A DNA stretch of 32,000 bases from Parasynechococcus marenigrum WH 8102 (GTDB lineage: Bacteria > Cyanobacteriota > Cyanobacteriia > PCC-6307 > Cyanobiaceae): contig NC_005070.1 in assembly GCF_000195975.1 (NCBI RefSeq), forward strand, positions 1,110,001 through 1,142,000. Direction: 5' to 3'. The notes below the pieces were generated by a model. It searched no databases. It saw only the letters and a program-made list of their open reading frames with translations, and was not told where the DNA came from. Positions 17,218 to 31,566 of the stretch are shown here, piece by piece. A program made the translations under genes and the position numbers. The first letter of the stretch is position 1. Every line of letters starts with the position of its first letter.

Positions 17218-17280
17218 AACGGAGAGGGTGGGATTCGAACCCACGGTACCCGTGAAGACACGCTGGTTTTCAAGACCAGA
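17218..17280 (-). repeat. attL: orphan 3' fragment of tRNA-Ser (nt 27-87 plus 2 nt)
   Basis: 62/63 identical to 31504-31566. The only difference is A at 17248 versus G at 31534. Confidence 0.9.
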
Positions 17281-17320
17281 CTTTTTCATCACTAAACCAT
17301 TGTAAATACTGGATTCTTGC

Positions 17321-17360
17321 GTGCCCTAAATCGTGAGTGCTCTAAAACGTGCCCTAAATC
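17321..17360 (+). promoter_or_regulatory. three tandem 12-bp repeats GTGC(C/T)CTAAA(T/A)C, candidate arm-type recombinase or Xis sites
   Basis: Exact GTGCCCTAAATC at 17321 and 17349, with variant GTGCTCTAAAAC at 17337. They lie 40-80 bp inside attL. Confidence 0.4.
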
Positions 17361-17401
17361 CAGCTGGAGCTTTTCTCGAAGGTTGCACGGAGCCGCCAGC
17401 C

Positions 17402-17411
17402 GTACTAGTAC
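17402..17411. promoter_or_regulatory. 10-bp perfect palindrome GTACTAGTAC (copy 1), candidate operator
   Basis: It lies 22 nt upstream of the start at 17433. The identical decamer recurs at 21286. Confidence 0.35.
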
Positions 17412-17432
17412 TGGTGTATTGGGAAGAGGAAT

Positions 17433-17681
17433 GTGTCGGTTGATCATGCGAGCGCCGTTGCAGCGCCAAAGTCGGATCCCGTCTTTCTGCACGTCAAAGC
17501 AGGCATGACCGTGATCGTCACTGACACGGATGGGGCCTGGCGGATGGCTGATGTGATTTGGGTCGATGGCGGTGCCAGGAACCCAAAGGTTCCAACGTTG
17601 TTTCAGGTGGCTGACGTCGATACAGGCGTCATCAACTGGATCAACGCTGACTTAGTGACTCACATCGTCCCCAGGGTCTGA
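17433..17681 (+). CDS. DUF3104-like small cyanobacterial protein (tentative)
   Basis: 82 aa. GTG start preceded by GGAAGAGGA. The pattern W.MADVIWVDGGARNP..PTLFQVADVDTG.INWINADLVTHI recalls DUF3104, from memory. Confidence 0.55.
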   Translation: MSVDHASAVAAPKSDPVFLHVKAGMTVIVTDTDGAWRMADVIWVDGGARNPKVPTLFQVADVDTGVINWINADLVTHIVPRV

Positions 17682-17722
17682 TTTGAGTGGATAGGGTCCA
17701 CGGACTCTTAAGTCCACTTCTC

Positions 17723-17899
17723 ATGAACCGGTCCCCAAATTTCGCCTTCATTGGCGGCACCGTGATCATCGCGATCATGGTCATGACTGCCTTCGCCAAT
17801 TTGGCTAACGCTGGCGGCTGCTCTTACAGCAAGTCAGCCGAAGCAACCCCCGAGCAGGTTGAGCAGAAAAAGAGCGAGGAGCCTGGGGTAGAGGCTTGA
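17723..17899 (+). CDS. small secreted protein or lipoprotein candidate
   Basis: 58 aa with a hydrophobic N-terminus ending in ANAGGC. The ORF opens at GTG 17687. Confidence 0.35.
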   Translation: MNRSPNFAFIGGTVIIAIMVMTAFANLANAGGCSYSKSAEATPEQVEQKKSEEPGVEA

Positions 17900-17932
17900 T
17901 CGCTTAGGACAAGCCACAAGCTGTCCTCGCCT

Positions 17933-17951
17933 AACTGGCACAGTGACAGTT
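17933..17951. promoter_or_regulatory. 19-bp near-palindrome AACTGGCAC-A-GTGACAGTT upstream of sRNA copy A
   Basis: One mismatch from the perfect palindrome found at 21734. It overlaps the expected -35 region, and TATGAT at 17960 is a -10 candidate. Confidence 0.4.
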
Positions 17952-29390: not shown

Positions 29391-29472
29391 GGTAAACTCC
29401 GGGTGTGGACGGAAAAATGCTGGCGAGCTTTGCGTTCAAAGAGAGGGCCACCGTTCCAGCGGTGGCCTTCTT

Positions 29473-29670
29473 TTATGAGCAGTGTTCCGAGAAACCCTGC
29501 GCTGTTGCCCACTGCTCCAGGGCAAAACGAAGAACTGTCGAGTCACTGACACCCTCAACGAGTGCAGTGGTCTTCACGAAAGAAACAATCGGCTCTGGAA
29601 ACCGCGCGTGTAGCGCAGAAGTCATTGGCCCTTGATGTTTCTCCCGCTTGGCAAATGCCTGGATCGACAT
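29473..29670 (-). CDS. RHH-like small DNA-binding protein (tentative)
   Basis: 65 aa. The strand-helix-helix pattern ALHARFPEPIVSFVKTTALVEGVSDSTVLRFALEQW. Confidence 0.4.
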   Translation of the reverse strand: MSIQAFAKREKHQGPMTSALHARFPEPIVSFVKTTALVEGVSDSTVLRFALEQWATAQGFSEHCS

Positions 29671-29825
29671 GTCTTTAAGAGCAGAAAACTCTGTTACACT
29701 TATTCTATCAGCTGTGGCTTAATTAGACCCGCTTAAGTATTCACTACTGTGCTTCATTAGTTGGCTCCTCTTTCGATATCAGTAACAGCATCTTTGTGGT
29801 GATAAAGCCAGTCAGTTCGCCGACC

Positions 29826-30038
29826 TCACTTCACCGGCTTGATGCTGCTGGATCGAAACTGCCCTGCCAGCCTCCACTTCGTGAGAGTCTCGCTTGTGAC
29901 GCCTAGCCTTCTCGCAAGCTCACGCGGCGGCAACCACGCACTTGCTGTGGTTGGCGAACGATCCAGCAGCAGATTGATGTCATGACGCATTTGCCGCACT
30001 TCTGCGGTCAACGACGCCAACAATGAGGTTTCAGACAT
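29826..30038 (-). CDS. excisionase/AlpA-like HTH protein
   Basis: The HTH sequence LPPRELARRLGVTSETLTKWRLAG, located immediately downstream of the integrase gene on the same strand. The ORF also has a GTG at 30047. Confidence 0.6.
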   Translation of the reverse strand: MSETSLLASLTAEVRQMRHDINLLLDRSPTTASAWLPPRELARRLGVTSETLTKWRLAGQFRSSSIKPVK

Positions 30039-30191
30039 GAGGAACACCCAAGAGGAACTAGTCGTTAGTTCGCAAAGGCGCTGACGCCCGGGGCCTTGGA
30101 TGAACCTCTCACTGCCATAAGACGGCTTGCAAATTCAGTTTAACCCGTTTCTACTGTTCGCGCATGGGTGCTCCTCAGGCTTGTTAGTGGT

Positions 30192-31334
30192 TTAGAGATT
30201 TTCAGCAGCTCTCAGGATGTCTCTCTTCTGCATCGCAGCTGCATAGGTCCGCATGTGGATGCTGATGTCGTGCCCTGCTGCTTTGGCTGCCACTCCATCA
30301 CCAAGCTGGCTTTTCAGGATGGAGCGGATGCACCACGAATGTCTCAGGTTGCTGTTTTCGAGTTTCACCGTTCCACACCATCGGCTCTGAAGCCACTTGT
30401 TCATGCGATCGACGTGCCCTTTTGTTTTGTTGCTGTCGTAGGCGACAGGGTCAAGAAACTCATTTGGCCTCTCAACTGTGCAGATTTCGAGGGGTTCAAT
30501 CCACTCTTTCGGCAACGCCAGGGCTTCTCGTTGCTCTGGTGGTGCGTTTTTTTGCTTGATACCCAGGACTGATGCAGTCGCACCAGTTTCTGATGGCACC
30601 AAGCTGAACACCTCTGACACCCGACATCCGTAGACCAGCAGGGCTGCGAAGCACCAGCCATAAATGCTGGAATGACGGTTGTTCAACGCAAACTCAAACA
30701 GCTCTTCGTCTAACGGAAGCTTCGGCACCCTGGTTAGATACTTCGTATGGACCTTGTCGAGTTCTTTAGTTGGCAGCTCGGCAAACTTTGCCAATGCCTT
30801 GGCTTTCTGGCAGAACTCGTGGCGCGCCTTGCTCGCTGCTGGTAGTGACTTGGCAACCGCAACAAGTGCCTCAATCGTCAGCAGATCAGACGTGTCAGGA
30901 TTTTTCTTGAACGATGCCTCGATTCGATCCCACGTTCGCTTCGCTTGAGACTTCTGGGCCGTAGTGCTGACGTCCCGCTTTTCGTACCAGTCGGCTTTGA
31001 ACCTCGCTGTCCATGCACCAATGGTCTGGCTTTCAGATGGCTCCTCTGGCGCTTGGGTCGTTTCGCCCGATTGAAGCCAGCCGTCCCAGCTGAAGGTGCC
31101 GAGCTTTCTGTCAGTCGAAAGCTTGATCGCCAAAGTCTTGGCGCGATTCAGCCCTGCCTTGGTCGCATCACAACCGGTTGGGACGTCGTATTGAACCTCG
31201 TGGTTGCTCCCATCTTTGTGCGGCAAGACGGCTCTGAGGCAAAGCTTGTTGCGCCGTTGCCGGATTGAGACGCCAGCTTTTTCGGCCTTAAGACCTTGGT
31301 TGACGGCTTTGACGAGATCGCCAACTTCAGACAA
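30192..31334 (-). CDS. int: tyrosine integrase
   Basis: 380 aa. Catalytic Arg in YGCRVSEV, then LRHSWCIRS and AGHDISIHMRTY. It lies next to the tRNA target. Confidence 0.9.
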   Translation of the reverse strand: MSEVGDLVKAVNQGLKAEKAGVSIRQRRNKLCLRAVLPHKDGSNHEVQYDVPTGCDATKAGLNRAKTLAIKLSTDRKLGTFSWDGWLQSGETTQAPEEPSESQTIGAWTARFKADWYEKRDVSTTAQKSQAKRTWDRIEASFKKNPDTSDLLTIEALVAVAKSLPAASKARHEFCQKAKALAKFAELPTKELDKVHTKYLTRVPKLPLDEELFEFALNNRHSSIYGWCFAALLVYGCRVSEVFSLVPSETGATASVLGIKQKNAPPEQREALALPKEWIEPLEICTVERPNEFLDPVAYDSNKTKGHVDRMNKWLQSRWCGTVKLENSNLRHSWCIRSILKSQLGDGVAAKAAGHDISIHMRTYAAAMQKRDILRAAENL

Positions 31335-31452
31335 CGAAGCGCGCCCGAAAAGCTACCCCGTTTGCACCGTTGCACAAGGTTCTGGCCAGAGCTGCGATAG
31401 CGGCTGTGTCGGCGGTGCTTCATGCGGCACTTCGCGAGATCCCCTGCAGCGC

Positions 31453-31478
31453 AATAAAAAACCCCGTCAACGACGGGG
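31453..31478 (-). terminator. intrinsic terminator downstream of tRNA-Ser, on island-side DNA
   Basis: The minus strand reads CCCCGTC-GTT-GACGGGG followed by TTTTTTATT. Confidence 0.6.
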
Positions 31479-31503
31479 CTTTGAAGCGGTGGTGACTATC
31501 TGA

Positions 31504-31566
31504 AACGGAGAGGGTGGGATTCGAACCCACGGTGCCCGTGAAGACACGCTGGTTTTCAAGACCAGA
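31504..31566 (-). repeat. attR: repeat copy inside the intact tRNA-Ser
   Basis: 62/63 identical to 17218-17280. Confidence 0.9.

Follow-up and report, generated by a model that had tools for sequence, protein, structure and literature searches.

A probably still functional island of the tycheposon kind, with a cargo rich in non-coding RNA genes, at tRNA-Ser(UGA) of a marine Synechococcus

Tycheposons of Prochlorococcus, whose site-specific integrases form a tyrosine recombinase lineage of their own, are integrated at seven tRNA targets, Ser(tga) among them, and a subtype resembling the phage-inducible chromosomal islands (PICIs) has terS or MCP; cargo was never seen by the authors on this PICI-like subtype (bioRxiv 10.1101/2020.12.28.424599). 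For marine Synechococcus, insertions that resemble tycheposons were described upstream of the phycobilisome rod region, where they sit at tRNA-Phe(GAA) (Grebert et al. 2022, PMC8995045). Islands with "phage integrases" beside tRNAs have been known in this genus since 2008. The DNA analysed here, referred to below as the window, is a stretch of 32 kb from Parasynechococcus marenigrum WH 8102 (contig NC_005070.1, positions 1,110,001 to 1,142,000), and its subject is an element of about 14.3 kb in tRNA-Ser(UGA), at 17218–31566; coordinates are positions in the window, and (+) and (−) are its strands. The element is taken, with a probability of roughly 0.7, for a PICI-like, site-specific mobile island of the tycheposon kind, integrated and probably still functional, whose host, a marine Synechococcus, is a relative of strain A18-46.1. 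Islands of this kind are already described; the sole unusual feature is a payload that consists mostly of small non-coding RNA genes.

The tycheposon assignment is made on gene content and layout. Like tycheposons, the element is integrated at a tRNA gene and flanked by a full and a partial tRNA copy that form a direct repeat; the tRNA end is taken by an inward-facing tyrosine integrase, which xis adjoins, and a small replication module comes next (a VirE/SF3-type helicase in tycheposons, DUF3987 here and a VapE-like protein in A18-46.1); the size falls within 10–20 kb, the place is the proximal end of a variable island, modules are exchanged, and there is a weakly supported candidate for a terS-type gene. 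Of the hallmark set of tycheposons (xis, a helicase or primase of the VirE/DnaB type, terS or MCP) the element has an xis-like gene, DUF3987, in place of which the variants in A18-46.1 and Synechococcus sp. A18-40 have VapE-like and AAA_25 proteins, and the terS candidate. The likeness to tRNA-island elements of picocyanobacteria, which a first-pass annotation of this DNA had seen in the letters alone, holds in content and in layout, tRNA-Ser(tga) being one of the targets. Unlike tycheposons, the element is found in Synechococcus and not in Prochlorococcus; the cargo is mainly non-coding RNA instead of nutrient-uptake operons, and, unlike in PICI-like tycheposons, a TerS-like gene occurs together with 6 kb of cargo. 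The tRNA-Phe insertions share with it the genus, the linkage to a tRNA, tyrosine recombinases and a tRNA remnant, but the tRNA is another one, the recombinase is at the distal end, and no iteron replication module, TerS-like gene or RNA cargo was described (PMC8995045). With PICIs (Staphylococcus aureus pathogenicity islands, SaPIs, and those of Gram-negative bacteria) the element has in common int and an xis-like gene, an initiator beside an iteron origin, a length of ~14 kb, the lack of structural genes and a small-terminase homolog (here the weakly supported TerS-like protein); the searches showed no relationship in sequence and no master regulator of the Stl/AlpA type, and PICI integrases are tyrosine recombinases of other types (bioRxiv 10.1101/2020.12.28.424599). 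The N-terminal domains of the integrase, XisAC_N and XisAC_2nd, are those of XisA/XisC of Nostocales. The XisA/XisC elements interrupt nifD or hupL and are excised during development; here, unlike there, the target tRNA is intact while the element is integrated, and replication and packaging-type genes are carried.

Boundaries of the element: the sole tRNA found in the window by ARAGORN was tRNA-Ser(tga) (31505–31593, minus strand); the intact gene was placed at 31506–31592 (−) by Rfam (tRNA, 56.2 bits). Its 5′ part, nt 1–26, is chromosomal, and nt 27–87 lie within the right, integrase-proximal copy (31504–31566) of a 63-bp direct repeat, the left copy of which (17218–17280) is an orphan tRNA-Ser 3′ fragment. 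On the tRNA strand the repeat begins one base ahead of the anticodon stem, covers the variable arm, the T arm and the acceptor 3′ strand and ends two bases beyond the 3′ end (nt 27–87 plus 2). The copies are identical at 62 of 63 positions, with a single mismatch (A 17248 against G 31534), and the repeat is not due to chance; the repeat finder gave the spans 17218–17299 and 31504–31585, and the 63 aligned bases were fixed by reading the sequence. The first-pass annotation had reported this repeat, with the intact tRNA on the right and the orphan on the left, and its coordinates were correct by ARAGORN, Rfam and the sequence itself.

The mismatch is at tRNA nt 59, which pairs with G48 in the variable arm (sequence read by eye). 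The exchange of a G-C for a G-U pair had been noted before and is correct; the conclusion then drawn, that both copies look like functional tRNA halves, does not stand. Two metagenome contigs of related strains (L050, 98.7% identical; L051, flank 85–91% identical) have the same left junction with G at the position equivalent to 17248, and the T variant of nt 59 occurred in none of 35 species, so that the difference reads as a private mutation of a non-functional orphan remnant; judged by these comparisons it is neither an attP/attB difference nor a second functional allele. The DNA between the repeats (~14.2 kb) has a lower GC content (0.50–0.57) than the chromosome over 1–15000 (0.60–0.64). 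Just downstream of the tRNA 3′ end and within the element, a GC-rich hairpin with a T-run was read from the sequence (31452–31480, −); it is probably the tRNA terminator, carried in by the element, which would also provide the portion of the tRNA 3′ of the crossover.

Occupancy of the site in relatives: a scan with the tRNA 5′ half, one genome per species, returned 35 loci. The flank on the tRNA 5′ side is the gene of a class II ribonucleotide reductase (RNR); p167, SDR, a LOG-family protein and an SdiA-regulated-domain protein form the flank beyond the element. An element-free site was found in seven related Synechococcus species (L015, L017, L025, L033, L040, L043 and L047) with the gene order RNR, tRNA-Ser, 0.9–3 kb of unrelated DNA, p167, followed by SDR, LOG and SdiA-regulated where the stored stretch reaches that far. 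None of the seven had core element genes at the site; L033 had one DUF3104 homolog beside the tRNA, and chromosomal homology was picked up again at window position 14991. The DNA between this point and the orphan repeat (14992–17217, 2.2 kb; GC 0.45–0.49) is low-GC island DNA outside the element and contains a DUF3303 gene; it was not found in the empty-site species, which have their other DNA in this place, and is probably older island material.

A variant of the element was present at the same site in Synechococcus sp. A18-46.1 (locus L009; RNR 99% identical at the amino acid level). It is 96% identical to the window over tRNA, int, xis and the distal cargo and 85–87% identical in the middle, and window 26781–29400, which is exactly the DUF3987 gene with the iterons, is swapped for a VapE-like module with different inverted repeats (L009 11935–14373; a 321-aa protein, a VapE-like protein and TGTGCCAC-type inverted repeats), the DNA on both sides of the replaced block being 86–96% identical to the window. 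In A18-40 (locus L014; RNR 99% aa) the integrase of the occupant is 53% identical, and the replication protein is of the AAA_25 type. Because of the empty sites and the variant occupants, the repeat delimits a unit that is missing in related species and swapped among close relatives; the polymorphism of presence and absence that the first-pass annotation had expected at the repeat was thus found. The exact integrase sequence also occurs on an ENA scaffold of 446 kb and on metagenome contigs from estuarine and marine samples.

In the index of the assembly collection the exact integrase was in 41 blocks and two exact flanking proteins were in 79 and 89; the difference could reflect presence and absence in populations or merely assembly breaks at repeats. 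Three loci (L022, L027 and L029) come from metagenome-assembled genomes named Pelagibacteraceae, Gammaproteobacteria and "bacterium TMED88"; their contigs have a Synechococcus tRNA-Ser and an RNR 79–96% identical to that beside the window's tRNA (from L001), and are probably mis-binned cyanobacterial contigs.

Integrase (380 aa; 30192–31334, −): the gene reads inward from the tRNA end and encodes a divergent XisA/XisC-type tyrosine recombinase. No matches were obtained in local copies of Pfam, PHROGs and NCBIfam, and none that was meaningful against PDB by sequence and profile; the precomputed Pfam domains were XisAC_N and XisAC_2nd (PF27551, PF27132). Among 21 homologs, down to 30% identity, the residues R238 (YGCR-SE), R331 (RHxW), H355 and Y364 do not vary at all, and K260 hardly varies; the AlphaFold (AF2) model (pLDDT 83.7) gave full-length lambda Int, XerA, Cre and Tn1549 Int as top Foldseek matches, in agreement with the earlier call of this gene as int. 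The homolog in A18-46.1 is 98% identical and bears the NCBI name "putative phage integrase"; homolog searches gave only Synechococcus or unnamed proteins, and the family comprised 1355 representatives at E ≤ 1e-3 (50% clustering) and 267 at E ≤ 1e-30. Integrase relatives with 25–31% identity were found directly beside full-length tRNA-Ser(tga) on three viral contigs of IMG/VR (L052, L053 and L054), all of which encode a family A DNA polymerase; by these contigs the integrase family reaches podovirus-like marine phages that use the same tRNA.

Xis-like protein (73 aa; 29826–30047, −): weak matches to helix-turn-helix (HTH) and excisionase hidden Markov models (HMMs) uphold the xis-like gene of the first-pass annotation; the ribbon-helix-helix-like gene proposed along with it is supported by no HMM. 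The xis-like gene adjoins int in L009, L014, L021, L023 and on the viral contigs L053 and L054, i.e., in int relatives down to 25%, and this persistent adjacency fits a directionality factor.

Position of the crossover: the 5′ half of tRNA-Ser(UGA) is identical through the anticodon stem in 35 of 35 genomes, and the variable and T arms occur among them in at least five sequence versions; such polymorphism of the 3′ half beside a fixed 5′ half is expected if elements keep replacing the 3′ half. Sister elements with integrases of ~53% identity duplicate tRNA nt 1–43, the 5′ rather than the 3′ half: in A18-40 (L014 9772–9814) and in AG-686-B21 an orphan of nt 1–43 lies between RNR and int. The distal end of the AG-686-B21 element, exactly 10,001 bp on, is where the complete tRNA is restored, behind the element DNA; for A18-40, an intact tRNA-Ser was not seen over a distance of 11 kb. 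The two types of repeat (nt 27–87 and nt 1–43) overlap solely at nt 27–43, the anticodon stem-loop, which is the classical position of strand exchange for tyrosine integrases that target tRNAs; from this overlap we infer that the crossover would lie within the anticodon stem-loop of tRNA-Ser(UGA). Short sister elements were seen in L023 and L048 (QCVM01000006.1, 34383–44426), and L021 is a mini version of 3.4 kb with int, xis, Cyano-1 and p70.

Replication module: the replication protein (769 aa; 27081–29390, −) has a C-terminal DUF3987 P-loop domain (Pfam 2e-26; PHROG "DNA helicase" 1e-4), as had been recognised before; no domain was assigned to the N-terminal ~400 aa in NCBIfam and PDB searches, and no meaningful match was found among PDB sequences. 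A putative replication origin (26789–27077) lies directly 3′ of the gene. Five GGTGGCA iterons (27026–27077; spacing 12, 11, 11 and 11 bp) follow right after the rep stop codon, four inverted copies stand at 26789–26839, and the spacer of ~190 bp between the two arrays holds AT-rich ATATAT patches; the heptamer occurs 21 times in the whole window versus 6.9 expected, so the iterons of the first-pass annotation are real. In SaPIs the iteron origin lies directly beside the gene of the replication initiator; a SaPI-like cognate initiator–origin pair fits here, because the iterons adjoin rep and both are swapped together in A18-46.1.

Conserved core block: a short tyrosine recombinase (191 aa; 25145–25720, +; Phage_integrase 3e-21, PHROG integrase 2e-30), the second recombinase of the earlier annotation, is the sole core gene on the opposite strand. 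It has the catalytic domain only, as judged from its length and the profile positions; its R, HxxR, H and Y motifs were read by eye. Between it and the gene of a TerS-like protein there is always p86, a conserved 86-aa protein (24574–24834, −). The TerS-like protein (138 aa; 24161–24577, −), which had been overlooked at first, as had five Rfam RNAs of the element, consists of an N-terminal HTH (HTH_23, 0.0018) and two long helices. The window protein matched a PHROG small terminase at 0.0028, and 12 of 22 family members matched three PHROG terS families (best, 3.8e-5); the AF2 model (pLDDT 78) gave as best Foldseek match the nonameric phage protein 2ao9 (probability 0.99, E 0.03), with NV1 TerS (probability 0.82), Sf6 gp1 and also TetR- and SlmA-like regulators further on, and the TerS-like profile had no meaningful match among PDB sequences. 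A small terminase is thus a plausible identity of the 138-aa protein, with weak to moderate support.

The short recombinase, p86 and the 138-aa protein travel together, also into an element of Synechococcus sp. A15-62 (locus L058) that is flanked by one full and one partial tRNA-Arg(tct), at a distance of 11.6 kb from each other, and has an unrelated 414-aa protein at the integrase position; the cargo of the A15-62 element includes HNH_2 and T5orf172 genes. The short recombinase is 87–91% identical even there, and because it is kept in this tRNA-Arg element it is not an att-specific enzyme. An invertible switch for the short recombinase at 24835–25144 was considered and rejected: no convincing flanking inverted repeats were found.

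RNA-rich distal cargo: from 17281 to ~23400 there are few credible open reading frames (ORFs), and five Rfam matches above the gathering scores were found inside the element. The statement of the first-pass annotation that most genes are unassignable hides a cargo of non-coding RNA that makes up ~40% of the element (distal 6 kb). Cyano-2 RNA (RF01702; gathering score 40) is present as copy 2 at 22288–22490 (−; 187.4 bits) and as a divergent paralog, copy 1, at 19409–19611 (−; 180 bits); the copies have many differences in stem-forming stretches, compensatory by eye, and each has a near-identical ortholog in A18-40. Cyano-1 RNA (RF01701) is likewise present as copy 1 (17966–18028, +, 48.4 bits; 17966–18051 with terminator) and copy 2 (21767–21827, +, 48.3 bits; 21767–21851 with intrinsic terminator), each followed by a strong terminator. 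An 18-bp palindrome, ACTGGCACAGTG(A/C)CAGTT, stands ~15–30 bp upstream of each Cyano-1 (17934–17951 and 21735–21752) and is exclusive to the Cyano-1 upstream sites in the window, L009, L014 and L021; it may serve as an operator or belong to a longer form of the Cyano-1 motif. The fifth RNA is a glutamine-II riboswitch (RF01704; 18117–18176, +; 62.9 bits), after which a 55-aa DUF4278 ORF (18197–18364, +; Pfam 2.5e-8) and a terminator (18385–18406) follow. A block of ~350 nt occurs twice with a terminator (18397–18760, +; 21840–22202, +, with a strong terminator at its end); the copies are 93% identical, nearly invariant across genomes including A18-46.1 and A18-40, bounded by strong terminators and contain only micro-ORFs after an AAGGAG motif; no Rfam match and no clear structure were obtained for it (fold z-score −1.6).

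Protein genes of the distal part are p71 (71 aa; 20129–20344, −), found beside p70 at the short sister elements' distal end, and the DUF3104/p70 region (17433–17899, +; Pfam DUF3104 2e-19), the p70 of which is kept at the sister elements' distal end. A degraded remnant of a tRNA-Arg(UCU) 3′ fragment (21133–21190, −) is itself below Rfam detection and was seen through its better-kept homolog in A18-40 (L014 19384–19441), which scores as tRNA (30.3 bits, Rfam); the fragment agrees with the att copy at the distal side of the A15-62 tRNA-Arg element (L058 14842–14913). By these alignments the remnant is an att scar of another island, and the cargo a chimera that includes material from there. Extra tRNA fragments that would subdivide the element were looked for and none were found at E ≤ 0.1. 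Cyano-1 and/or Cyano-2 are also present in L009, L014 and L021; a scan of 33 other tRNA-Ser loci, of which L023, L042 and L048 are partial views of short sisters, showed neither RNA. Window 19415–22535 is 93% identical to A18-40, although the protein identity to A18-40 is no more than 53% for int, 62% for xis, 45% for the short recombinase and 43% for the TerS-like protein; by this difference the cargo has moved between element lineages.

The mode of life of the element may be pictured as follows. A circular form would recombine with the chromosome by means of the XisA/XisC-type integrase in the anticodon stem-loop of tRNA-Ser(UGA); the element would bring a terminator and its own copy of the tRNA portion that begins with the anticodon stem and runs to the 3′ end, and the displaced 3′ part of the chromosomal tRNA would be left as an orphan 14.3 kb away. 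Because the element carries its own 3′ copy, the tRNA stays intact beside int. Int and the adjacent small HTH protein would reverse the integration; after excision, replication would be initiated by the DUF3987 P-loop protein, at the origin with the iterons directly downstream of its gene. For the short second recombinase, multimer resolution or regulation is likelier than integration, because it is kept with the p86/TerS-like block whatever the att site. The TerS-like protein suggests that the replicated DNA may be packaged in capsids of a helper cyanophage. The distal 6 kb would serve as cargo, with two diverged copies of a Cyano-1/Cyano-2 module, a riboswitch-controlled peptide gene and micro-ORFs, and would be traded between elements by homologous recombination.

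Several results weigh against this picture of a mobile, satellite-like island. A degenerate junction pattern designed for attL, attR, attB and attP was applied to metagenome contigs, at the contig level only. A circular form would be expected to have the junction …GGTGACTATCTGA + repeat + CTTTTTCATCAC…; for attP the prediction is …GGTGGTGACTATCTGA (element end) + 63-bp repeat + CTTTTTCATCACTAAACC…, and for attB …CTTCATTCTGTTTT + repeat + GCCATAAACCACTC…. No attP or empty attB junction with the flanks of this strain was obtained, the two matches both being integrated left junctions, and the excised or circular form by which the first-pass annotation had proposed to check its claim was not detected at this level. 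For each exact flanking protein, 23 of 23 contigs read were integrated or broken at the repeat, with no empty site; Logan contigs end at the repeat because of the repeat itself and not because of excision. IMG/VR yielded neither a copy nor a close relative in searches with the integrase, DUF3987, the TerS profile, the junction and the Cyano-2 pattern, the integrase relatives there being 24–31% identical only; GenBank phages gave no DNA similarity to either half of the element (blastn) and none to the TerS-like protein (tblastn), the support for which is weak in the E values given above (0.0028 and 0.03); the same left junction in L051, in a diverged flank, is compatible with long vertical residence. 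Because no junction, viral-contig copy or phage similarity was found, we infer current mobility and the satellite lifestyle and did not observe them. An island that carries cargo, is mobile and replicates itself without being a phage satellite is a rival reading: its 138-aa protein would be an HTH regulator, as the TetR- and SlmA-like fold matches and the name "MerR regulator" given to homologs by some sources would have it, and it would be transferred by vesicles, generalized transduction or other routes; the absence from viral contigs and the 6 kb of cargo, none being found on PICI-like tycheposons described so far, agree with it as well. We nevertheless consider it unlikely, since more than half of the family (the 12 of 22) match small-terminase families, the best fold matches are small-terminase-like oligomer subunits, and the gene stands in a conserved block without an obvious regulatory partner.

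A fixed composite island, no longer mobile, which arose by successive integrations and recombinations and of which only att scars survive, is considerably less probable still. The chimeric cargo with its duplicated modules, the internal tRNA-Arg scar, the left junction shared with a diverged strain, the private mutation in the orphan repeat and the lack of an excised form at the contig level would suit it; yet no ORF of int, xis, rep or the two recombinases is broken, the catalytic residues are invariant, the att repeats have stayed 62/63 identical, and close relatives (RNR 99% aa) have different elements at the same site or a cleanly swapped rep/ori module, for which reason turnover is regarded as recent. 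As to a decayed prophage or a programmed XisA-like excision element that restores a gene, the NCBI name of the integrase, its XisAC Pfam domains and its distant relatives (25–31%) beside tRNA-Ser on podovirus-like contigs point there. Capsid, portal, tail, large-terminase and lysis genes were not found with Pfam, PHROGs and NCBIfam among ORFs conserved or longer than 70 aa, nor did these scans match a relaxase, oriT, type IV secretion system or coupling protein, so that the earlier verdict of neither prophage nor integrative and conjugative element is upheld; there is no DNA similarity to GenBank phages, excision restores no gene because tRNA-Ser is intact in the integrated state, and heterocyst differentiation does not occur in marine Synechococcus. 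This last possibility is largely ruled out already and is given next to no weight. Defence genes were not detected by PADLOC.

For the island of the tycheposon kind, the concept of tycheposon and PICI-like elements is extended to marine Synechococcus by an example with clean limits that appears to be intact, the 3′ half of the tRNA-Ser(UGA) gene turns out, within the genus, to be a mosaic from successive element visits, and two structured RNAs gain a genomic context; none of these findings overturns current understanding. To our knowledge, Cyano-1 and Cyano-2 have been orphan Rfam motifs without known function since 2010. The Cyano RNA cargo is 93–96% identical across elements in which the core proteins have diverged to 43–62%, and it is tentatively suggested, as a rather doubtful proposal, that both RNAs are selected payload genes of tycheposon-type, satellite-like elements that act in the conflict of element, phage and host and not in host housekeeping; they would, for example, be regulators or decoys in cyanophage infection or nitrogen stress. 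If true, marine mobile islands would have a class of cargo that is based on RNA. The cultured and fully sequenced A18-46.1 (CP047955) has the same element, with variants in A18-40 and A15-62, and with such carriers excision, replication and dependence on a helper phage are open to direct test.

Further proteins of the element: downstream of the TerS-like gene, a conserved 112-aa protein (23804–24142, −; 92% identity in L009, 45% in L060 and L061); a 74-aa protein (23437–23661, −) with paralogs at 22740–22898 and 20129–20344 and the motif SAQRKR[FY] (repeat families D4, D6 and D7); a conserved 96-aa protein (26514–26804, −; 86% aa identity in L009) with no HMM match in Pfam, PHROGs and NCBIfam; and a conserved 76-aa protein (25990–26220, −; 67–71% aa identity in L009 and L058).

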